Assembly (NCBI GenBank): GCA_016700135.1 | Contig: CP065004.1 | Location: 300,001-332,000, forward strand | Direction of reading: 5' to 3' | Length of the DNA: 32,000 bases | From: Candidatus Saccharimonadota bacterium | Lineage (GTDB): Bacteria; Patescibacteriota; Microgenomatia; UBA1406; GWC2-37-13 | Part shown: positions 2,607-20,157 of the stretch, one piece after another | Numbering within the stretch: the first letter of the stretch is position 1 | Layout of the letters: each line of letters begins with the position of its first letter | Program-made: the position numbers and the translations under genes | Notes under the pieces: model-generated | Told to the model about the DNA's origin: nothing | Databases searched by the model: none | What the model saw: the letters and a program-made list of their open reading frames with translations, nothing else

Positions 2607-4313
2607 TCAGCGTTCCATCTCAACCTCAATGACCCGTTTCAGGATCGCAAGGGAGGACGCATAGGTAGCCTCAACTCCTTCATAACCGAGGTTTCTGGTT
2701 CCGAGTGTGATCGCTTTCGTGAACGGCGTATCCGATGCATAGTGGATGATCCCGATATCTATCGGGGCGTTGAGCATAGTCACCGTTGTATTTTTGGGAT
2801 ATCGGTCGAAATGAGTCGTCTCGTATAAAGCGCTCAGATAAGGACCGTCCTCCATCTCGACTATCGTGTAATCTTCAATGAAGTACTGTTGAATCGCCTC
2901 TTCGGGATGGAGGAATGTGCCTTTCGTAGATACGACTTTCTGATTGGTCAGGACACTTCCCGCACGAAATTCCGTGAAGTAGTCTTTTGTAAAGGCATTA
3001 TTAAAAATGAACGTATTGTCACTGTACGTATCATATACTTTTGTCGGTAGTCCGATATCACCCAAGTTTGCATGCAAAAATGAGGCTTTCCCCAAAATAT
3101 ATACACCGCGAAGATCATTGACGTTGTGGAGAATCGTTGAGAGTACCATATAGGCTCCTGAGCCGAGAGGATAATCTATGTTGAGGACCAGTGCTTCGGA
3201 ATCGTCAAATTTCCCTTGAGCAATCCCCAGTTTTTTAGCCAAGCCTGTTTTCCCGACATCTTTCAGTGAAAATACCTGCGCATTGATATCGAGATAATGT
3301 TTCGCATCAATAAAATCAATACCCAATTCGCGTTCGTAAGCTTCCCGTTTTTCTCGAATTTCCGGATGCTCCCTTTCATACTTTTTCAGTATGTACCAGA
3401 GAAAATTTTCTTTCGAACCGGGATGCTCTCCTTTCTCGATCTGTTTCCAGTATGAGAGAAACCGCTCGGATTTATGTTCCTCAAGATATCCGATCAGCTC
3501 CTTTTCAATGCCTATGACCCAACCGGTGAGATTGTTTACGATGCTGTGAGTGTTTGATGAGACAAAATACAAAGGCTTATTCCTCAGTTCCTTATACCGC
3601 GTATGTTCAATAATATTTTCGAACCATCTCTGTGCTGCTTTTTTATAGTCGACATAATTACCCCGAAGCAGTCTTACGTTAAAATGAACTTCCTTTTCTT
3701 TGATGTTTTGGAGCTTTTCAAACATTTCTTTATCCCAGATTCGAGCCAGACGTTCCCAGTTTTCATCATCAATTTCAAGAACATCCTGAATCTCTTTTTT
3801 GTTCTTTGCGGAAATTTCTTTAGCATTTTTCAACCTGCTATGGAGTTTGTTCCACTCGATTTCATATGCCGTGAGAAGACCTACCATGTCATCCAGATCA
3901 GTCACGGAGTTGATGAACACGGCAAGCTGGGACTCTCCGTCATAGTACATCTTGCGGCGGCGTGCCGGTGCATGAACTTCCTGCCAGAACTCTATTTTGT
4001 ATCCTTCCCGCACAAAGATATCACCTATCTGTGCCATAACGATTTTGGAAATCTCGGATATATGAGGCGGCAAACGAAGATACGCATACATAAAAGCCTC
4101 AACATCGATTTTCTCCTGATCGGCGAATTTATGGATAGAAGGCCTCATGTTCTGATACAGCCGTACTACCTGTTCTATATTCATTTCTCCTTCTGCACGT
4201 AAGAATGATCTGTACGCATTGATATATATCGTGGTTGGGGAATGTTCTTGATCCATAACTGTACACATTTTAGCAGAAGTACGGATATTCTGAATGCAAG
4301 AAATGATTGACAT
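2607..4313 (-). CDS. hypothetical protein: long helical N-terminal region plus a C-terminal nucleoside phosphorylase / AMP-nucleosidase-like domain
   Basis: 568-aa ORF, first gene of the zwf-gnd operon. The C-terminal LVLNIDYPLGSGAYMVLSTILHNVNDLRGVYILGKASFLHANLGDIGLPT ... IVEMEDGPYLSA parallels the PNP_UDP_1 pattern (xGxGxxxAA...GxxGG...GD, then xxEME). An alternative start at MDQEHS (ATG 4256) lies 10 nt downstream of TGCTAAAAT (4275..4267). Confidence 0.75.
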   Translation of the reverse strand: MSIISCIQNIRTSAKMCTVMDQEHSPTTIYINAYRSFLRAEGEMNIEQVVRLYQNMRPSIHKFADQEKIDVEAFMYAYLRLPPHISEISKIVMAQIGDIFVREGYKIEFWQEVHAPARRRKMYYDGESQLAVFINSVTDLDDMVGLLTAYEIEWNKLHSRLKNAKEISAKNKKEIQDVLEIDDENWERLARIWDKEMFEKLQNIKEKEVHFNVRLLRGNYVDYKKAAQRWFENIIEHTRYKELRNKPLYFVSSNTHSIVNNLTGWVIGIEKELIGYLEEHKSERFLSYWKQIEKGEHPGSKENFLWYILKKYEREHPEIREKREAYERELGIDFIDAKHYLDINAQVFSLKDVGKTGLAKKLGIAQGKFDDSEALVLNIDYPLGSGAYMVLSTILHNVNDLRGVYILGKASFLHANLGDIGLPTKVYDTYSDNTFIFNNAFTKDYFTEFRAGSVLTNQKVVSTKGTFLHPEEAIQQYFIEDYTIVEMEDGPYLSALYETTHFDRYPKNTTVTMLNAPIDIGIIHYASDTPFTKAITLGTRNLGYEGVEATYASSLAILKRVIEVEMER

Positions 4314-4368
4314 ACGACTCCGGCTTTTTTATACTCTAAAACGGTATAAAATTTACATCATACTGCCA

Positions 4369-4473
4369 ATGTTTTTTCAATAAAGGGAGATATACAAAGA
4401 GGAGTGCTCCCGGCCTCACAAGATCAATCGGAACTGTCTTATCACAACGACCCTTTGAAGTGGTCGTTTTTTT
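4369..4473 (+). promoter_or_regulatory. candidate cis-regulatory leader RNA (pseudoknot plus intrinsic terminator), copy A, class unassigned
   Basis: GGGAG 4385-4389 pairs with CTCCC 4407-4411. GAGG 4399-4402 pairs with CCTC 4414-4417. The terminator is CGACC 4448-4452, a 9-nt loop, GGTCG 4462-4466 and T7 at 4467-4473, ending 18 nt before the FTR1 ATG. The same blocks recur at 14462..14564. Confidence 0.6.
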
Positions 4474-4491
4474 ATAAGTTACCCTGACAAT

Positions 4492-5310
4492 ATGTTACCT
4501 GCATTCCTTATCACTTTTCGCGAAGTCATTGAAGCGACGTTGATCGTTGCCACGATTCTCGGCATTTTATACAAACTCAACCATACAAAAAGTATTAAAA
4601 CCGTCTGGTATGCAACAGGTATTGCCGCTTTAACAAGCGCTTTACTGCTTCTCGGCGGCAGCATTCTCGGCGTAAAAATGCAGGAGCTTTATACAGGGAG
4701 AGTAGAGGAACTTATCGAAGGTATCTTCATGGTGACTTCAGCAATTTTTATCACATGGGCTGTCTTTTTCCTCCATTCATATTTCGGAAAATACAAAGTA
4801 CAACTATTACAGAAAGTGAAGAAAACTCTGGAAACGCAGGAACAGAAGGGAATATTTGTACTCGTTTTTACGGCCGTATTCCGTGAAGGATTTGAAATTG
4901 TACTATTTCTTTCGACAATCTACTTTTCTTCCGATCCGGCACATATTTTTACAGGGTTTGCGTCGGGTATTATTGCCGGACTTATTGTTTCATATCTGTT
5001 TTTCAATGCGACGGTGAAGATGCCGATTTATTATGCGTTTCGGGTGACAAGCGCTCTCCTGATCTTGTTTGCTGCAGGACTCTTATCACGCGGGATCCAT
5101 GAGTTTGCCGAAGCAGGACTGCTCCCCGAGATAGGAAATGTGATATTTCATATAGTTCCTGCAAAGGGAACATTTGTGGGAGACATGATAAAAGCAGTTT
5201 TCGGGATCACTCAGTCAATGGATTATGTGCAGGTCAGCCTCTATTTGATGTATACCGCCGCTATGACGTGGTTTGTATTTTTCAGGAAAAGCACTGCTGA
5301 GGAAACCTAA
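4492..5310 (+). CDS. FTR1/EfeU-family high-affinity iron permease
   Basis: 272-aa polytopic membrane protein with the two REXXE motifs of the FTR1 family (REVIE near the N-terminus, REGFE mid-protein). Confidence 0.85.
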   Translation: MLPAFLITFREVIEATLIVATILGILYKLNHTKSIKTVWYATGIAALTSALLLLGGSILGVKMQELYTGRVEELIEGIFMVTSAIFITWAVFFLHSYFGKYKVQLLQKVKKTLETQEQKGIFVLVFTAVFREGFEIVLFLSTIYFSSDPAHIFTGFASGIIAGLIVSYLFFNATVKMPIYYAFRVTSALLILFAAGLLSRGIHEFAEAGLLPEIGNVIFHIVPAKGTFVGDMIKAVFGITQSMDYVQVSLYLMYTAAMTWFVFFRKSTAEET

Positions 5311-6703: not shown

Positions 6704-6762
6704 GAATGTATAGGTAATGTGTCTTGTTACCAATTCATGACTTGAAAGGTGGTGAGGCCAAC

Positions 6763-6900
6763 ATGCCAGTAAAGAAAGCAAAAAAAGCTGTCAAGAAAAC
6801 CGCTAAGAAAAAGGTAGCAGCTAAAAAGAAAACAGTGAAGAAAACCGTCAAGAAAGCAGCTAAAAAGAAAACAACCAAGAAAAAAACAGCAAAAAAATAA
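6763..6900 (+). CDS. 45-aa lysine-rich basic protein (histone-H1-like KKAAKK repeats)
   Basis: ATG 6763 is preceded by AAAGGTGGTGAGG (GAGG 5 nt upstream). The translation is MPVKKAKKAVKKTAKKKVAAKKKTVKKTVKKAAKKKTTKKKTAKK, followed by a strong terminator. It is too short for the ORF track. Confidence 0.65.
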   Translation: MPVKKAKKAVKKTAKKKVAAKKKTVKKTVKKAAKKKTTKKKTAKK

Positions 6901-6910
6901 TCTCTTTTTG

Positions 6911-6958
6911 AAAAGATCACAGTCAATGACCGCGGTGGTATGCTGTGATCTTTTTTTT
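6911..6958. terminator. intrinsic terminator, potentially bidirectional
   Basis: AAAAGATCACAG (6911-6922) pairs with CTGTGATCTTTT (6943-6954). A T-run follows on the + strand and an A-run/T-run on the reverse strand. Confidence 0.75.
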
Positions 6959-7053
6959 CCTTCATTCACACCAAAGGTCATAGTGATAACCCTTAAAGGG
7001 AATGAAGGAATCTCCGAAGAAGATTCCTTCATGGTCAACATGAATTGCCGGAA

Positions 7054-7292: not shown

Positions 7293-7880
7293 ATGATCTC
7301 TGAAAAACGTGCTCAAATTATGAAAAATGTCGTTTCAAAACGACAGAAGGGAATTACCGTTGTGTTAGAAGACCTGCATGATCCTCACAATGCGGCGGCC
7401 GTTCTCAGGTCCTGTGAAGGATTCGGGGTACAGGAGGTGTACTTCATTTTTGAAAATCAGGAAGAGTTTAATCCCCGGAAAATCGGGAAATTATCCTCAG
7501 GATCTGCGAACAAATGGCTGGATTTCCGTATGTATCATTCAACTGAGGAATGTATTACTGAGCTTCACAAAAAGGGGTATACAGTATATGCAACAACTCT
7601 TGATGATAAGGCAAAATCCCTGTATGAGGCAGATCTTCGGGAAGAAAAGATAGCGCTTCTTTTCGGCAATGAACACAGCGGGATTTCTGAAAAAGCTTCG
7701 GAGCTTTCTGACTATACGATGTATATTCCGATGCGCGGCTTTGTACAAAGTTTCAATGTATCGGTAACCGTCAGCATCTTTCTGTTTGAATTGACAAGAC
7801 AACGAATCAGTGACAAAAGACTCCAACCGCTCGATAGTAATATCCGGCAGAAACTTCTCGAAGATTTCCTCAAACGGTAA
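7293..7880 (+). CDS. SpoU/TrmH-family RNA 2'-O-methyltransferase
   Basis: HDPHNAAAVLRSCEGFGV, LLFGNEHSGIS and IPMRGFVQSFNVSV match the three SPOUT (TrmH) motifs. Confidence 0.85.
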   Translation: MISEKRAQIMKNVVSKRQKGITVVLEDLHDPHNAAAVLRSCEGFGVQEVYFIFENQEEFNPRKIGKLSSGSANKWLDFRMYHSTEECITELHKKGYTVYATTLDDKAKSLYEADLREEKIALLFGNEHSGISEKASELSDYTMYIPMRGFVQSFNVSVTVSIFLFELTRQRISDKRLQPLDSNIRQKLLEDFLKR

Positions 7881-7885
7881 GATTC

Positions 7886-7914
7886 TTGCATTTCTTTTCC
7901 CGTTATCGTACAAT
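7886..7914 (+). promoter_or_regulatory. sigma-70 promoter of the Fur-family gene
   Basis: TTGCAT (7886-7891), a 17-nt spacer, then TACAAT (7909-7914). The inverted repeat TGCAA-N5-TTGCA (7914-7928) overlaps the -10/+1 region. Confidence 0.6.
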
Positions 7915-7935
7915 GCAACTATATTGCAATAACTT

Positions 7936-8349
7936 ATGAAAAACGACAATATTGAACAATTAAAGGACAAAGGTCATCGTATCACACAGGCAAGAAGTGC
8001 TGTTATAGAACTTTTGGAGAATACGGATCGTCCGACTTCAGCAAAAGCTCTTCACACAATGCTTGAACGAATAGGAATCCATGTGAATGTGACGACTGTA
8101 TACCGTGAACTTGACTTCCTTCTTGCAGAAAATATTATCGAAAAAGTACCTTTGAAAGATACGGAACTGCATTATGAAATGAAAGGACGACCGCATCACC
8201 ATCATCTTCTTTGTACAGCGTGCGGAAATATTGAGGATATCTCGTTGGAATCAGAACATGTTCTTTTGGAGGAAGCACATACCGTTTCTTCCTACCAAAT
8301 AAACAGACACTCGCTTGCATTCTACGGCAAATGCCCGAAATGCCAGTAA
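7936..8349 (+). CDS. Fur-family metalloregulator (Fur/Zur/PerR not distinguishable)
   Basis: A winged-helix N-terminus (ITQARSAVIELL...TVYRELDFL), an HHHH stretch, and CTAC plus CPKC zinc-site cysteine pairs. Confidence 0.85.
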   Translation: MKNDNIEQLKDKGHRITQARSAVIELLENTDRPTSAKALHTMLERIGIHVNVTTVYRELDFLLAENIIEKVPLKDTELHYEMKGRPHHHHLLCTACGNIEDISLESEHVLLEEAHTVSSYQINRHSLAFYGKCPKCQ

Positions 8350-14393: not shown

Positions 14394-14461
14394 GATCTTC
14401 CCTTGCACACTTCTCTCTTCTTTTTTATAATAGAGTACTTGTCAATTCAGATTGTCAAAAT

Positions 14462-14564
14462 AATGTTTTTCGAATAAAGGGAGTCTTTCATCTGAGGTTC
14501 CGCTCCCGGCCTCGTCATAACAGCTATCAGTTTAACCGCGACCTGACTTTCCGGTCGTTTTTTT
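14462..14564 (+). promoter_or_regulatory. candidate cis-regulatory leader RNA (pseudoknot plus intrinsic terminator), copy B
   Basis: GGGAG 14479-14483 pairs with CTCCC 14503-14507. GAGG 14494-14497 pairs with CCTC 14510-14513. The terminator is CGACC 14539-14543, a 9-nt loop, GGTCG 14553-14557 and T7 at 14558-14564, ending 8 nt before ATG 14573. Confidence 0.6.
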
Positions 14565-14572
14565 GTGCCATC

Positions 14573-15640
14573 ATGGATTCTTCATCATTTGAAACAATGC
14601 GTGAAGAACAGCTTCAAGAACGTGAAAGCGCGGATGTCACAAATGCCGCCCATATCCTCGGCAAGACCATGGGTGTCTCTCTTGACGGGATTCCGAGCTT
14701 TATGAAGCCTCAGGAAATTCCCGGTTTGCCGAAACAACAGGAAGGGATACCTGCCGATCATGATTGTACTATATGTGCCGTCACGGCAGCCTGCGGATTT
14801 TTCAGTGAAGCACAAAAAAACGGAGGGAATAATCCGTTGATGAGACGATTACAGGCAGTTCAGGAACTGACAAAATCTAATCCGGATATTTTGAAAGGCC
14901 CCGACGCAGAGAGTCTTATCAGGGAGCGTATGGACGCATTAAAAATCCAACCGGAAACGGTTATAACTCCTTCTTCAGAAGTTACTCCGACGAAACAGGA
15001 GGCAGTAAAACCGGCTGCGTCCGTGATACCGGAACCCGTATCGATCGTGAAAGAGGCCTCCAAAGCACAAAATGAAATCCCCAACGTGAAACCTGTCGAA
15101 GCCGCCCCTCCTCCAATTGCAAAACCTGATCTGAAAACAACTGTCGCTCATTTTGAAGCAAAAGTCCAACCTACATTGTCAGTTGAAAAGCCAAATACAA
15201 TAGCATCTTTGCCACACGACCCTACCCCTGCGGAAACCGGAACCGTTCCTCCCACTGAAACTGCGCACCAATCAGCACCTCCCGCTGAACAATCCGTACC
15301 TTCTGCAGGAGATGCTCCTGTTGTAGGAGCATCTGAACATCAGAACAAACCAAATGAAAAATTGACAGAGAACACATTACTCAAAGAATCAGATGAACCA
15401 AAGAAAGAGACCCACCAACAAACTGGAGTGAAAGAGGTAGCAGTTTCTGAAACCTCAACTACAGCAGCAACTATCGACAAAACAGAACAACAATTTGAGG
15501 ATTTCCAACAATCTACATCGGAAGTACAGCAAACTAAGCATACGGCAAATCCTTCCGAGTATCCGCCCGAAACTCCCCACCAGGCGGGACAAACTGTAAA
15601 GGAAAAAGCAAAAGCCTCAAACGTATATGAAAGGCTCTAG
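14573..15640 (+). pseudogene. 5' fragment of an IS-disrupted gene for a ~900-aa acidic, Pro/Thr/Glu/Ser-rich protein
   Basis: The ORF runs into the IS left inverted repeat. There it gains two foreign codons (R, L) and stops at TAG 15638-15640. Confidence 0.8.
15626..15632. repeat. target-site duplication TATGAAA (left copy)
   Basis: Identical 7-mer immediately flanking each inverted repeat of the IS. Confidence 0.8.
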
Positions 15641-16347
15641 ACTAGCACATTAACAATTTGTAATAGTTCATTGTAAAGGATCGATGGGGATTTGCTCCAT
15701 CTCCATTCACACTCTTTCAAGTGTAATGGAAAGTTTTTCTTTACACCATTGAACTTAACGAGACGTCTTTTACAAAAGGACCAGAATGACTCTATGCCAT
15801 TGATATGGACCCCTTTTGTATTTGAGAACTCATTTTTCTTGTGATTGATTCTCAAATGTTTGTCATACCCGACATCAACAAGTCCGTTGTATCCGCTCCA
15901 CGAATCTGAATATACAGTACTGTTCAAGTCAATCTTTCCCTTCATAACAGCATGTAGCGTTCTTCTTTTACAGTTTGGAATGATACGAGTAAATACACGT
16001 CCTTGACGCTCATATATCCCAAATACTACCTGCTTAAATGACGTCCCACGACCTCTTTTACTTGACTTGCCTCTCATCCTTCGAGGTCCAAAGTATGATT
16101 CATCAATTTCTATCTCACCACCAACATATCGTTGCATCTGGTGCACTTGGTGATGATATATGAGTTGACGAATATTATTGTAATATTTGTTGACTGTATT
16201 GCGGTTGAGACCCAAAATACCAGAGGTCTGTGTAGCACTCAGATCGTGTGCAAAACACCATAGTATCTTTTTTCTCTTGTATTTTGATATCGGCCTATTG
16301 TTACAAACCATACCTCTAGTTTAGCACTACTCTGCTAGTCTAGAGCC
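15633..16347 (-). mobile_element. IS1595-family insertion sequence (small, IS1016-like size class), 715 bp
   Basis: Perfect 15-bp terminal inverted repeats: GGCTCTAGACTAGCA at 15633-15647 and its complement at 16333-16347. It has a single transposase ORF and 7-bp direct repeats. Confidence 0.9.
15637..16311 (-). CDS. IS1595-family (ISXO2-like DDE) transposase
   Basis: 224 aa. EIDESYFG, KRGRGT..K..VFGIYER.G.V, YSDSWSGYNGL, INH..NEF and HINGIESFWSF.KRRL are hallmark blocks of DDE_Tnp_IS1595. The stop codon lies inside the inverted repeat. Confidence 0.9.
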   Translation of the reverse strand: MVCNNRPISKYKRKKILWCFAHDLSATQTSGILGLNRNTVNKYYNNIRQLIYHHQVHQMQRYVGGEIEIDESYFGPRRMRGKSSKRGRGTSFKQVVFGIYERQGRVFTRIIPNCKRRTLHAVMKGKIDLNSTVYSDSWSGYNGLVDVGYDKHLRINHKKNEFSNTKGVHINGIESFWSFCKRRLVKFNGVKKNFPLHLKECEWRWSKSPSILYNELLQIVNVLV

Positions 16348-16354: not shown

Positions 16355-17997
16355 TTACCAAGATCGATAAAACCGACATTGCTGAACTTCCGACATACAC
16401 AGCTAGGGAACATCAAAAACCGCCCGTGACGGAAACTTCTACTGAAGAAACACGAATGGAGATCCCAAGAGGTTTTGCTCAACCTGAGGAGTCACGGGTT
16501 TTTGGAGTAACTACCTCAACCAGGCTTGTTGCAGAACAAACGGATGTTCTTCCACAGATCTCCGAACCAGCCTCATACGTTCCGAAGGAATCTCTTCCCG
16601 ACGTCATGGAATCGGGATTTGTCATTCCCCAACCGTCGATTGAAATGCACATTGGGGATCATCCCGTCACGCCTGAGGAGTCTGCCATCAAACGACATAC
16701 CGGACAATCAGAAGACACTGCGGAGCAATTTTCATCACCTTCTGAAGTGCAACCGACTGATGTATCTGTCATAACGGACACGCCGAAAGAAAGGCTTCCA
16801 GAAAGCAACATCTCAACTCCCGTATCGGAAACTTCTCCGTTTGCAGCTGAAGAACAGTTCTCTTTCATGACAGTACCTGCCGAAGAGGCTGCTTCCACGG
16901 AAACAACACCGAATCAGACAGATACACCGAGCGGTTTTCAGGAATCTGTAATTACCGATTTTACCGAAAATGAGGAAAATTTATTGTCAGAACAAGCCCT
17001 TAACGCTGATACTCATATCCCGGATACTGAAACGTCAACAGTATCCCTAACACAAACGGAATCGGATGAACGAACAATTACTGCTGATTCAGAACTTATA
17101 CGAACAGACATTGCGGACTTACCGCCCAATACTGAAGTCATACTTGAAACGGGGCCCCAGGCTGTTTCTCTCACCGAGCAGACAATAACCCTTTTCTCAT
17201 ACAAAGATGCCCATAGAGAAGATAATAAAACTGAAGATTTAACCCCGGGAGTTTATCCCGAACATGGACTCTCACCAGTTGTTGATCTGCCTTACGTCCC
17301 TCTTGAATCCATTAACCTTACCCAACTGATTGAGTATGATGCTGCTGGTCTTGTCCAAAATACTTCTGATACCTCAGAAAAAGATCCTCAAGCTCACTTT
17401 AAGGTATATGAAGATTCAGAAGACGAGATCATATCTGAGCAGCCCGATAATCAGGAAATAATTCCGGGAATACCATTTCCTGAACCGTTTCCGCTTATTT
17501 TGAATACTGAGCAGGAAGTAGTTGATCAGATTTTCAGAGGGATTGAAGATCAAAACTACCAGGAAGAGCCAATCGGCGTTTTTGTACTCCCTATGGAAGA
17601 GTCTGTGTCCGATGAAAGCAGCTTCGTTGAAGATAATGTCCTCCCCGAAGTGATCGTATTTGTCTGGAATGAAGCACTTTTTGAAAATCTGACTATGCAT
17701 ATTGCTGAAATTAACGAAGTTATTGAAGATTTTGCCGTTGAAGAACAACTGGACGGGATGTTCTATATTCTTTTTGACAGTAACCCTGAAGTGGCCGACG
17801 AAGAATTGAAGAATGATACATTCGGCAAATATGACGACACCGTCATTCTCCTGTGGTATATCATCAAAATGATGGCGCTATTCGGACAGGCAATGCTTTA
17901 CATTGACCCGAGATCACTCATACCTGAATTTAAATATCCTTCACATAATATCGGATCTCTCCCGATTTCGGATCAAGAAGATCATATAAGTACGTAA
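16348..17997 (+). pseudogene. 3' fragment of the IS-disrupted acidic protein gene
   Basis: The frame is open from the right target duplication (TAT GAA ATT ACC ...) through the ORF-track GTG at 16426 to the stop at 17997. It is in phase with the 5' fragment once the IS and one duplication copy are removed. Confidence 0.8.
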
Positions 17998-18520
17998 TAT
18001 CTTCATCCCTGTGCCTGACACATCCCGAACTGCCCGGATCTTCTGATGATAATTTCTCAGGGTTTCCGGCTACTCCGTGAAGTCCGAAATATCCCGGTAA
18101 CTCCCAATTGCACTGTTCTCCTCCGCACTCCAGATACGGTGACGGTCCGAACGGTGCTTCAGACGGCGTCGGGACATCAAGTATCAAAAAATAAGGAGCA
18201 GTTTCAGGATTATTAGTCGACTCCATTTTGTCAGTCAGTACCCAGTACTCTCTCCCGACAAGGTCGGGAAGCGGTGTCGGTCGTTCACCGGGGATACCCG
18301 TTTTCACGGTGAATTTCCTTATGAGCTCACTTTCATGAATATCGCCCGGTTTCCCGAGATACAGATACTCAACATTTGATTTCCGATGAAGCAAAAACCA
18401 ATAAGCAGGCTTCATCACGTCTTTTTTTGCCTGAAACCGTGAAATGCTTTGAAATTGAGTTACGACAATACCGGTGAGAATAAGTGTGAGGACGCCCAGT
18501 ATAGGTATTACCTTTTTCAT
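17930..18520 (-). CDS. L,D-transpeptidase (YkuD domain), membrane-anchored
   Basis: GLHGVAGNPEKLSSEDPGSSGCVRHRDEDI matches the YkuD H...S.GC(I/V)R catalytic motif. An N-terminal TM helix follows MKKVIPILGV. The start at ATG 18520 lies 7 nt downstream of TGaTACAAT. Confidence 0.8.
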   Translation of the reverse strand: MKKVIPILGVLTLILTGIVVTQFQSISRFQAKKDVMKPAYWFLLHRKSNVEYLYLGKPGDIHESELIRKFTVKTGIPGERPTPLPDLVGREYWVLTDKMESTNNPETAPYFLILDVPTPSEAPFGPSPYLECGGEQCNWELPGYFGLHGVAGNPEKLSSEDPGSSGCVRHRDEDITYLYDLLDPKSGEIRYYVKDI

Positions 18521-18527
18521 ACATGCC

Positions 18528-18536
18528 ATTGTATCA
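18528..18536 (-). promoter_or_regulatory. extended -10 (TGaTACAAT) 7 nt before ATG 18520; leaderless-type promoter
   Basis: The reverse strand reads tTGaTACAATggcatgtATG. Confidence 0.55.
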
Positions 18537-18552
18537 AACGTTACGGTCTTTT

Positions 18553-18561
18553 TGCTAAAAT
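18553..18561 (+). promoter_or_regulatory. extended -10 (TGcTAAAAT) 5 nt before ATG 18567; leaderless-type promoter
   Basis: The sequence reads tTGcTAAAATacggcATG. It sits back-to-back with 18528..18536 in a 46-bp divergent region. Confidence 0.55.
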
Positions 18562-18566
18562 ACGGC

Positions 18567-19661
18567 ATGCGAAATACATTTCTCACAATTCTGGTATTGC
18601 TTGCGGGGAGCATTTCATTTGTCGTATTCAAAAGTAATGCAGGTATTCAGAAACTCACCGTCAAATCAGAGAGCAACCAGGAAATATCACCGTCACAGGA
18701 ACCTACCGGGATACCGGATCAGAAAGTATTGAAAAGCAATTACCATATCTATCAATCATTCAACAACTGCGGTCCCGCATCACTTTCCATGGCTCTTTCA
18801 CATTATTCTATCAATGCCTCTCAGGAAGAGCTCGGGAAAGCTCTTCGACCGTATCAAAACCCCGCAGGAGACAATGATGATAAATCAGTCACATTGGAAG
18901 AATTAGGGAATAAAGTAGTTGACTACAACCTTATTCCCTTTCACCGGCCGGACGGTGATATCGAGCTTTTGACCCGTCTGATTGCACTGGATCTGCCCGT
19001 CATAACGAGAACATGGCTTACGAAAGATGAAGATATCGGCCATTATCGGGTAGTCACGGGATATGACAAAACATCGGGAGAAATTATTCAGGATGACTCT
19101 TATCAGGGACCAAACAGAAGATATTCCTATGAAGAGTTTGATGAATTGTGGAGCAAATTCGGTTATGAATATCTAGTCCTTGTCCCACCGGAAAAGAAAA
19201 ACGAAGTTGAGAAAGCCCTCGGTGATGAAGTAGATAAAACCGTAGCATGGGAACACGCAAAACAAAAAGCACAGAAGATACTTGCAGAAAACCCAGATGA
19301 TACAACTGCCCGCTTTAATCTGTCCGTTGCGGAATATTATCTGGGGAATTATAAACAATCAGTCGAAGAATACGAAAAAGTACGTGACAGACTACCTTTT
19401 CGGACACTCTGGTATCAATCGGAGCCTATTCGCGCCTACTTTGAACTTCAGGCTTATGATAAGGTATTCTCAATTACTGACAATATACTGAAAAACCAGA
19501 ACCGGGCATATTCAGAACTGTATATCATCCGGGGAGATAGTTACATGAAACAAAATCAACCCAAATTAGCAAAGCAGGAATATGAAAAAGCGGCCTACTA
19601 CAATCAGAATTTACAGATTGCCGAAGACCGCCTCCAATCTCTTTCTGTTACTCAACAATAA
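18567..19661 (+). CDS. peptidase C39-like domain protein with C-terminal TPR repeats, membrane-anchored
   Basis: An N-terminal TM helix (MRNTFLTILVLLAGSISFVVF). NNCGPASLSMALSHY is the C39-like catalytic Cys region and GHYRVVTGYD the His region. The C-terminal repeats are TPR-like. Confidence 0.75.
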   Translation: MRNTFLTILVLLAGSISFVVFKSNAGIQKLTVKSESNQEISPSQEPTGIPDQKVLKSNYHIYQSFNNCGPASLSMALSHYSINASQEELGKALRPYQNPAGDNDDKSVTLEELGNKVVDYNLIPFHRPDGDIELLTRLIALDLPVITRTWLTKDEDIGHYRVVTGYDKTSGEIIQDDSYQGPNRRYSYEEFDELWSKFGYEYLVLVPPEKKNEVEKALGDEVDKTVAWEHAKQKAQKILAENPDDTTARFNLSVAEYYLGNYKQSVEEYEKVRDRLPFRTLWYQSEPIRAYFELQAYDKVFSITDNILKNQNRAYSELYIIRGDSYMKQNQPKLAKQEYEKAAYYNQNLQIAEDRLQSLSVTQQ

Positions 19662-20157
19662 GCGTACCGACCTGTCCCTGCGCACGATGTTCACCCACTG
19701 AACAGTAGTATTCGAAAGTGCCTTTCTCCGTGACTGTAAACTCTACCGTTCCCGTGTCGCCGTTCTGAACGACAGGCATTTTGACTCCGAGCTCATCAAT
19801 GACAAAATCATGCATCATACTGACACTGTTCATTACAATGCGTACTTTATCCCCTTGCTTTACCCGGATTTCATTCGGTTTGTAGTAAAAACTTCCCGCT
19901 TCCACTTCAACAATCTGTACCGCTTCTTCTGAAGTACCGGCAGCCGATTGCTCTCCCGATCCGGAAGTAGTTGTATCCGGGGCCATAGAGTCATCCGTCT
20001 GACTTTCTGTTTCCGTTGTCGTATCTGTGTTGACTGCCTGTGAATTCTGATTGTTCTGTGTCATAAAAATCCCGGCCGCAACGACTGCCACGATAATAAC
20101 GGCTCCGATAATAAGCATATTGCTATTCCCTTTCGGTGATTGTGCTGCCTGTTCCAT
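19648..20157 (-). CDS. membrane-anchored cupredoxin-domain protein
   Basis: A TM helix, a Thr/Ser/Asp-rich linker, then a cupredoxin fold with MHDFVIDE (His) and YYCSVGEHRAQGQVG (Cys, His). Gln sits where related proteins carry the axial Met. Confidence 0.75.
   Translation of the reverse strand: MEQAAQSPKGNSNMLIIGAVIIVAVVAAGIFMTQNNQNSQAVNTDTTTETESQTDDSMAPDTTTSGSGEQSAAGTSEEAVQIVEVEAGSFYYKPNEIRVKQGDKVRIVMNSVSMMHDFVIDELGVKMPVVQNGDTGTVEFTVTEKGTFEYYCSVGEHRAQGQVGTLIVE

Follow-up and report, generated by a model that had tools for sequence, protein, structure and literature searches.

A conserved pseudoknot-containing 5' leader of FTR1 iron permease genes in Roizmanbacteria-like genomes as a candidate frameshift-gated regulatory leader

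Ribosome movement into a new reading frame that opens a downstream start has been described as a regulatory class in the review by Atkins et al. (2016, PMC5009743), where the ketolide-induced shift in the ermC leader serves as example. Here we report on two 5' leaders located at positions 4369-4473 (leader A) and 14463-14564 (leader B) of a 32,000-nucleotide (nt) stretch of contig CP065004.1 (positions 300,001-332,000; hereafter the window, with all coordinates counted from its position 1), where leader A precedes an EfeU/FTR1-family iron permease gene. Both leaders have the same sequence blocks in the same order, are compatible with an H-type pseudoknot and end with an intrinsic terminator. 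We consider it somewhat likely that the leader is a frameshift-gated, translated regulatory leader and not a free-standing aptamer. As judged from sequence comparison it most likely combines known kinds of control, regulatory frameshifting and leader-open reading frame (ORF) attenuation, with a frameshift-gated leader ORF appearing likelier than a ligand-gated terminator.

In the review's account of ermCL, as in the model proposed here, there is a short leader ORF, and ribosomes that have changed frame pass its stop into the spacer, unfold a structure and turn on the gene, such that frameshifting serves both as sensor and effector; in ermCL, however, a ribosome-bound drug provokes the shift, there is no dedicated slippery run plus pseudoknot, and the opened structure hides the Shine-Dalgarno (SD) sequence and the start codon (PMC5009743). 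Unlike ermCL, the window leader has a hard-wired -1 cassette, an ORF that is open over 30-53 codons with the terminator inside it, and an SD-less host. The cassettes of dnaX, IS3-family transposases, copA and phage G/GT (general knowledge and PMC5009743) have, like the window leader, a slippery run followed after 5-9 nt by a hairpin or pseudoknot and a nearby zero-frame stop, and the new frame is without a start codon of its own in both. The canonical cassettes sit within genes and give a second protein at a set ratio, whereas the window cassette occupies codons 2-3 of a four-codon leader ORF, its heptamer is non-canonical at position 1, and only the openness and the end position of its trans-frame peptide are conserved. 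The trp and pheA/pheL attenuators also have a short translated leader (translation being presumed in our case) with Phe codons before a terminator, and ribosome position decides termination. Frameshifting in pheL is termed incidental in the review (PMC5009743), and attenuation of the trp and phe operons is reported to be impaired in miaA (tRNA A37 modification) mutants (PMC9303304). In contrast to these attenuators the window leader has no alternative helices, and its leader ORF ends far before the terminator unless the frame changes.

Small H-type pseudoknots in 5' leaders, with conserved unpaired nucleotides and sometimes a terminator, are likewise found in the preQ1-I/II/III, SAM-II/V, fluoride and guanidine-III riboswitches. 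The window leader differs from them in having no Rfam match and no competing platform, and in that its pseudoknot lies inside a putative translated frame. Finally, the Mycobacterium tuberculosis leaders with a B12 riboswitch and an upstream ORF combine, as here, a structured RNA with a translated upstream ORF that affects the downstream gene, the sensor there being a known B12 aptamer, and the account given describes no recoding (PMC11260477). In our literature searches no programmed frameshift cassette serving as a leader switch came up, nor any native cis-regulatory RNA in Candidate Phyla Radiation (CPR)/Patescibacteria, with one review naming riboswitches only as engineering tools; searches on FTR1 together with riboswitch, and on leaderless translation in Patescibacteria, gave nothing relevant.

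The two window leaders, both on the + strand, consist of the 5' block AATGTTTTTTCAATAAAGGGAG in leader A (4368-4389) and AATGTTTTTCGAATAAAGGGAG in leader B (14462-14483), a GAGG block (4399-4402 and 14494-14497, respectively) and the 12-mer GCTCCCGGCCTC, which is identical in both copies (4406-4417 and 14502-14513). Allowing for ≤3 mismatches the 22-nt 5' block was found at two sites in the window and at none in 100 shuffles, and the 12-mer occurs in the window at exactly the two leader sites; the repeat of the leader blocks is far beyond chance. Sigma-70-like promoters were predicted 30-40 nt upstream of the conserved block, TTGACA-17-TATACT for leader A (4307-4335; 11/12 matches) and TGCACA-16-TATAAT for leader B (14404-14431; 10/12 matches), both on the + strand, and the block begins approximately 25-35 nt into the predicted transcript. 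The pseudoknot of leader A (4385-4417) can be formed by helix 1 (P1), GGGAG 4385-4389/CUCCC 4407-4411, and helix 2 (P2), GAGG 4399-4402/CCUC 4414-4417, with loops of 9, 4 and 2 nt, and that of leader B (14479-14513) by GGGAG 14479-14483/CUCCC 14503-14507 and GAGG 14494-14497/CCUC 14510-14513 with loops of 10, 5 and 2 nt. Both leaders end with a GC-rich hairpin followed directly by a U-tract, i.e. an intrinsic terminator: in leader A (4447-4473) ACGACC 4447-4452, N9, GGUCGU 4462-4467 and U7 4467-4473 (-9.7 kcal/mol), and in leader B (14538-14564) GCGACC 14538-14543, N9, GGUCG 14553-14557 and U7 14558-14564 (-8.9 kcal/mol). A simple terminator scanner overlooked both, only because of their 9-nt loops. 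The T-run of leader A is separated by 18 nt from the ATG of the EfeU/FTR1-family permease gene (4492-5310, + strand), which is without an SD sequence, while leader B is followed by the N-terminal part of a second regulated gene (14573-15640, + strand).

A sequence-only reading of this DNA had described two leaders roughly 10 kb apart with common ordered blocks and near-identical spacing (loops of 9 vs 10 nt and 4 vs 5 nt, and a GG linker in both), diverged loop and linker sequences, and an intrinsic terminator in both copies, that of leader A ending 18 nt before the start codon. The coordinates and sequences were verified in each of these respects, and so was the lack of a match to known riboswitch classes, noted there by eye: the whole window was searched against the Rfam 15 covariance models and no family reached its gathering score, and E-value scans of both leaders returned unrelated small RNA and small nucleolar RNA models at 15-21 bits (the best at 20.9 bits vs a 47-bit threshold). 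The comparative data support the element being a transcribed, conserved 5' leader.

Related leaders were collected from regions upstream of FTR1 orthologues, by pattern scans and subsequently with a covariance model (R1); loci carrying, or tested for, the leader are referred to by L-numbers (L001, L003 etc.). A pattern scan of 185,579 species genomes gave seven loci, and a scan of JGI metagenomes ten, five of them true and five chance matches within coding regions. The R1 model added second copies in the same contigs as well as more divergent copies, and viral contigs yielded chance matches only, all at ≤20 bits with the model. Together these searches, of which the one with a covariance model had been suggested in the sequence-only reading, recovered 19 distinct copies from approximately ten related Roizmanbacteria-like genomes or contigs.

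Every copy is followed by either an EfeU/FTR1 permease gene or a gene for a fast-evolving protein with an HDCxxC motif, and a genome usually has both arrangements once, as in the window, L003/L028, L013, L016 and L046; this suggests a two-gene regulon in a narrow clade. The element is kept upstream of FTR1 orthologues with 75-97% protein identity (L001, L003, L004-6 and L009). It is absent from the FTR1 orthologues L007 and L010, the mRNAs of which are probably leaderless because a TATAAT lies 6-7 nt before the ATG (L007:2480-2503; L010:2455-2503). The window FTR1 protein is 100% identical to a Candidatus Roizmanbacteria FTR1 family protein, with its nearest relatives in Microgenomates-group CPR bacteria. 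In relatives, the second regulated gene encodes a Pro/Thr/Glu-rich protein of about 950 amino acids (aa) with an HDCxxC…C motif; the L016 and L021 proteins are divergent and have only the HDCxxC motif in common with the window protein. The gene context suggests a link between the leader and a metal signal.

The conserved 5' block, AATGTTTTT up to TAA, reads as a four-codon ORF, AUG UUU UUY NNN UAA. In leader A this mini-ORF is AUG UUU UUU CAA UAA (MFFQ*; 4369-4383, + strand), beginning at the first AUG of the predicted transcript, and in leader B AUG UUU UUC GAA UAA (MFFE*; 14463-14477, + strand). Start and stop are kept 12 nt apart in 19/19 copies, counting a replacement AUG in L053 and a UGA in L013b, and in 14 of 15 predicted 5' untranslated regions the mini-ORF begins at the first AUG. 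Variation at codon 3 is limited to UUU/UUC, and codon 4 is free (Q, H, R, E, C, S, L, K or N) and never a stop. The changes at its borders preserve start and stop: UGA replaces UAA in L013b, the base after the stop is altered with the stop kept in L050 (UAAC) and L053 (UAA abutting GGGAG), and in L053, where the AUG is lost (CUG), an in-frame AUG is present two codons upstream (AUG AGA CUG UUU UUU CAG UAA).

The Phe codons and the preceding G make up a putative slippery run, G_UUU_UUU in leader A (4371-4377, + strand), 7 nt 5' of the pseudoknot, and G_UUU_UUC in leader B (14465-14471, + strand), on which tRNA-Phe might slip. All 19 copies have G_UUU_UUY, to be compared with the canonical X_XXY_YYZ; re-pairing would be perfect in the A site, and the P-site tRNA would re-pair on GUU. 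The homopolymer at the slip site ranges from T5 to T7 among the copies. The U-run and P1 are 7 nt apart in 18 copies, L053 having a spacer of 6 nt; this places a potentially stimulatory structure within 5-9 nt 3' of the slippery site. A spacer of 6-7 nt is the spacing of -1 programmed frameshift sites (general knowledge and the review PMC5009743). The architecture of the ORF, its conservation and this geometry are direct observations, as are the association with the two gene types and the missing SD sequences.

With frames counted from the mini-ORF AUG and the shift placed at G_UUU_UUY, most copies have a -1 frame that is open as far as the start of the downstream gene. In leader A it comprises 36 codons without a start codon of its own (4377-4487, + strand), crosses the pseudoknot, the linker, the terminator and the T-run, and ends with UGA 4485-4487, 4 nt before the FTR1 AUG (stop at -7 relative to the AUG). 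In leader B (14471-14572, + strand) there is no stop, and the frame is fused to the gene (…RSFFCAI-MDSSSF…). The predicted trans-frame peptide is MFFSIKGDIQRGVLPASQDQSELSYHNDPLKWSFFYKLP. For the main test we used 14 conservative representatives, one per lineage, shuffled only the variable segments and calculated a Poisson-binomial tail: between the slip site and a point 13 nt 5' of the gene AUG the -1 frame is stop-free in 11 of 14 representatives vs 2.8 expected (tail 1.4e-6). Over the same stretch frame 0 is open in 2/14 and frame +1 in 1/14, with scattered stops. When only the part 3' of the pseudoknot is considered, 14/17 have an open -1 frame (tail 4.5e-6), and stricter subsets gave values between 1e-4 and 1e-3.

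In the open copies the first -1-frame stop falls between -13 and +29 nt from the gene AUG. Specifically, its position is -13 in L053, -11 in L005 and L017, -9 in L016a, -4 in L013b, -3 in L022 and L028 (UAAAUG), +1 in L021 (AUGA overlap), +13 in L046b, +16 in L016b, +17 in L012, and +29 in L013a, L046a and L050. The -1 ORF reaches the gene start also in the copies that have no terminator. The exceptions are L003, where the stop overlaps the 5' arm of the terminator (UAACGACC), L009, where it lies 1 nt before this arm (UAG-A-ACGACC), and L004, where it lies 16 nt before it. L005 equals L004 minus one A in an A-run, and its -1 frame is open. Upstream in-frame stops are found at -7 to -31 with no ATG, GTG or TTG in between in many copies; a start codon belonging to the -1 ORF itself was looked for and none was consistent across copies, i.e. 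the frame is extended and open but has no initiation codon. Taken together, the AUG..UAA mini-ORF and a -1 frame open to the gene start suggest that the role of the pseudoknot is ribosomal frameshifting and not, or not only, ligand binding.

Two homopolymer differences were noted in this part of the leaders: A7 (L004:2430-2445) vs A6 (L005:2431-2445) closes or opens the -1 frame in orthologous FTR1 leaders, and T7 (window B) vs T8 (L012) decides whether the -1 frame is fused to the gene. Such differences in A-run and T-run length could be natural phase variation or assembly errors.

With respect to RNA structure, both helices can form in all copies (171 of 171 cells are standard pairs, compared with 46-59% after displacing the partner by 1-3 columns), and RNAalifold on the family recovers helix 1. 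Helix 2 changes from GAGG/CCUC to AUGG/CCAU in L017, i.e. two compensatory pairs, and has a G.U pair in L012. The loops vary between 9-11 nt and 4-5 nt, and CUCCC is separated from CCUC by a linker that is 2 nt long in every copy and free in sequence (GG, UG, AG, AU, AA, GA or GU). The pseudoknot is compatible with all copies and modestly supported. Terminators are present in 13 of the 19 copies (hairpins of -7.5 to -11.4 kcal/mol followed by U6-8), their stem, ACGACC/GGUCGU, is conserved across both gene types, and the 5' arm in L053 has two A-to-G changes, which are accommodated as G.U pairs. No terminator is present in the FTR1 copies L013, L016, L017, L046 and L050 or in front of the L021 gene. 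In two of these terminator-less FTR1 copies, L013 (minus strand, ~960-975) and L050:545-565, a TACAAT lies 7-9 nt before the ATG. Minimum free energy (MFE) and centroid folds of both window leaders contain P1 and the terminator together and no competing antiterminator, and the folding energies of the window leaders are overall no better than those of shuffles.

The earlier idea of an aptamer that controls the terminator through a switching helix is not supported. CCCTTT is indeed present in the terminator loop of leader A (4452-4457), but its pairing with AAAGGG is confined to copy A and its closest relative L001, being absent from copy B and nearly all orthologues; there is no antiterminator, and 6/19 copies are without a terminator. 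A second candidate antiterminator, CGGCC in the pseudoknot with GGUCG in the terminator arm, is broken where the linker is not GG, yet the terminator is kept. What is partly supported is the broader interpretation of the element as a genuine structured leader, not described before, that contains a pseudoknot and a terminator. CsrA-type GGA sites were also considered and are not conserved in the B-type copies or in L017.

Among the 23 Pfam-supported genes in the window only one has an SD-like core, and several have TATAAT or TACAAT 6-7 nt before the ATG, e.g. at 7293, 26411 and 27682(-), which suggests that leaderless mRNAs are widespread in this lineage. In the model that we favour, transcription would begin at the strong promoter, and the first AUG, approximately 25-35 nt into the RNA, would open the four-codon ORF AUG UUU UUY NNN UAA; being 5'-proximal and in an unstructured U/A-rich context, this AUG would be used in a host without SD sequences. 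In the off state most ribosomes would make MFFX and stop at the UAA 1-2 nt before the pseudoknot, the terminator (where present) would form, and the gene AUG, 100-130 nt downstream and without an SD, would get no ribosomes. The pseudoknot, 6-7 nt further on, would make a fraction of the ribosomes pause at G_UUU_UUY such that tRNA-Phe slips by -1. These ribosomes would then read the selected stop-free frame through the pseudoknot, linker, terminator hairpin and U-run and terminate -13 to +29 nt from the gene AUG or, in window B, run in frame into the gene. In the on state the terminator hairpin would be blocked behind RNA polymerase, and the ribosome would be passed to the gene start by termination-reinitiation. 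The frameshift efficiency would be the control knob, since only slipped ribosomes switch the gene on. We infer that slippage happens, that it relieves termination and couples translation, and also what modulates it: candidate inputs are a pseudoknot-stabilising factor, ligand or protein, or the iron-dependent ms2i6A37 (2-methylthio-N6-isopentenyladenosine at position 37) state of tRNA-Phe.

Several points weigh against this model. The inference as a whole is comparative and drawn from a shallow clade of related sequences, and the -1 frame was picked after inspection, which costs the p-value a factor of 2-3. The heptamer is non-canonical at its first base. Helix 1 is invariant in the 19 copies, and the covariation seen in helix 2 is confined to a single lineage and one G.U pair, and for this reason the pseudoknot is compatible and not proven; of the H-type pseudoknot put forward in the sequence-only reading, the pairing stood in every copy, while P1 never varies and compensation in P2 is limited to one lineage. 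Moreover, the pseudoknot is small (5 + 4 base pairs) with unusual loops (9-11, 4-5 and 2 nt, the 2-nt loop spanning the 5-base-pair helix). Coupling to the gene start is not universal, since the -1 ORF ends before the terminator in 3 of ~15 lineages. The -1-frame peptide is not conserved across copies, apart from a third-position bias (0/2/7) in one close pair, window A and L001; this lack of conservation fits a purely regulatory ORF, yet takes away one line of support. The TACAAT near the ATG of some terminator-less FTR1 copies could be an additional promoter that yields leaderless mRNAs and circumvents the leader, and a fixed frameshift ratio without regulation is a further option.

Of the other explanations, a classical riboswitch, in which the pseudoknot and the 5' tail form an aptamer for a metal or metabolite, the ligand sets the terminator, and the AUG..UAA and the -1 frame are incidental, is in our view unlikely. 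It would account for conserved single-stranded blocks beside two short helices with variable loops and a linker of exactly 2 nt in 19 copies, for the conservation of the ACGACC/GGUCGU terminator stem across both gene types and for the association with two genes of one putative metal regulon, and with no known class matching, the leader might represent an orphan class. However, the six copies that lack a terminator have no other recognisable expression platform either, and no platform mutually exclusive with the aptamer fold appears in the folds, where (MFE and centroid alike) P1 is held together with the terminator. The two candidate switching helices fail (CCCUUU/AAAGGG is seen only in A and L001, and CGGCC/GGUCG is lost where the linker is not GG), and there is no SD to sequester. 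The depletion of stops in the -1 frame and the changes in the mini-ORF that preserve its start and stop would also be left unexplained. The frameshift model is favoured because it explains four features that the riboswitch model does not: some copies lack a terminator, the spacing does not vary, AUG and stop of the mini-ORF are conserved, and stops are absent from one frame specifically. Somewhat less probable than a riboswitch, and quite unlikely, is a site for a trans-acting regulator (an RNA-binding protein or a small RNA), a DNA operator, or a short non-coding RNA ended by the terminator, with translation playing no role. The invariance of GGGAG, CUCCC and the U-run is indeed more like a recognition site than a plain helix, and a Fur-family regulator is encoded nearby (7936-8349). 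On the other hand, the variable promoter spacing (30-40 nt) and loops (9-11 and 4-5 nt) suit RNA loops better than an operator, the G.U pairs in L012 P2 and in the L053 terminator can form only in RNA of the + strand, a separate promoter would not fit between T-run and ATG in the window copies, and the -1-frame signal is unexplained.

Attenuation by a leader peptide without recoding, where a ribosome on MFFX/UAA covers GGGAG, prevents the pseudoknot and senses Phe-tRNA or release-factor activity (as in trp or pheA), appears very unlikely to us. The parts of such an attenuator are there, in that a leader ORF (if it is translated) has a conserved AUG, two Phe codons as potential regulatory codons and a stop 0-1 nt from P1, followed by a terminator in 13 of the 19 copies. 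But the mini-ORF ends 60-80 nt before the terminator, no 2:3-type helix joins the pseudoknot and the terminator, and neither folds nor alignments contain a zero-frame-controlled antiterminator over the terminator. There is also no reason for Phe supply to govern an iron permease, and the open -1 frame that ends at the gene start is not explained. Least probable in our estimate is slippage of RNA polymerase on T5-T7, by which one U is added, such that some of the mRNAs would themselves code for the long leader ORF. One added U yields exactly the open frame, the homopolymer varies from T5 to T7 between copies, and A- and T-run length polymorphisms are found elsewhere in the leaders (L004 vs L005; window B vs L012); but 5-6 T is short for productive slippage (general knowledge), and the pseudoknot at its invariant 6-7 nt spacing would have no role.

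MiaB is an iron-sulfur (Fe-S) radical-SAM enzyme. The ms2i6A37 modification stabilises the reading of UNN codons and frame maintenance, and miaA knockout in Escherichia coli UTI89 is reported to give more -1 frameshifting on the U_UUU_UUA HIV linker (PMC9303304); phage lambda frameshifting is, as described in PMC3296357, modulated by Fe-S cluster and sulfur metabolism via tRNA modification. Since MiaB is an Fe-S enzyme and ms2i6A37 keeps the frame, low iron could raise slippage and switch on iron uptake. As an extension of the frameshift model this is speculative and rather unlikely: at low iron MiaB would fail to methylthiolate A37 of tRNA-Phe, frame-holding on UUU UUY would be weakened, and more -1 slippage would override the terminator such that the permease and the partner gene are translated. 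No miaB gene is present in the 32-kb window. If true, the iron-sensing reading would mean that a minimal CPR genome has a feedback loop that needs no regulator.

CPR/Patescibacteria have tiny genomes and few known regulators. If the frameshift model is correct, a hard-wired -1 frameshift cassette would here for the first time act as the switch of a bacterial 5' leader, the sole related case in the 2016 recoding review being the drug-induced slippage in ermCL; one 50-nt module would gate both termination and translation initiation in an SD-less organism. Moreover, frameshift efficiency as a physiological sensor (possibly of iron via tRNA modification), an old idea, would become directly testable, and the size of the cassette suits a portable synthetic switch.

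Turning to the genes around the two leaders, the -35 box of the leader A promoter coincides in part with the start codon of a divergent DUF6909 gene (4313-4311, minus strand), and because of this overlap the DUF6909 promoter must sit on the opposite strand, within the 5' portion of the FTR1 leader. A conserved AAATGATTGACAT 5' of the FTR1 promoters was considered as a Fur box and rejected: it is the start of the divergent DUF6909 gene (MSII…), and nothing alike is found at the B-type promoters. The FTR1 gene is positioned tail-to-tail with a gene for a ferric-reductase/MsrQ-like membrane protein. Immediately upstream of the Fur/PerR-family regulator gene (7936-8349) there is an imperfect inverted repeat, AATGCAACTATATTGCAAT (7905-7935), which may be that regulator's own operator.

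The second regulated gene is divided in the window by an IS1595-family (ISXO2-like DDE) transposase gene (15637-16311, minus strand), with the C-terminal part at 16426-17997; the flanking ORFs, 14573-15640 and 16426-17997, correspond to the N- and C-terminal parts of one protein in L012, L022 and L028. As the IS1595 element splits the gene, the target of leader B may be a pseudogene in this genome. The second gene gave no Pfam match, protein searches gave only 1-2 relatives, and AlphaFold models of its protein had predicted local distance difference test (pLDDT) values of 34 and 50, too poor for a structure search. The second regulated gene is followed, at 18474-20157, by a cupredoxin gene and a C39-like peptidase/TPR gene, and this is also the case in the relative L028 (L028:7174-8782); the cupredoxin neighbour hints at a redox or metal role of the locus. 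Finally, AAGAAA-rich, tandem-like direct repeats (Lys-rich on the + strand) are present at 6780-6898 inside a minus-strand ORF of 104 aa (6727-7041), which has no Pfam match and for which the coding strand is uncertain.

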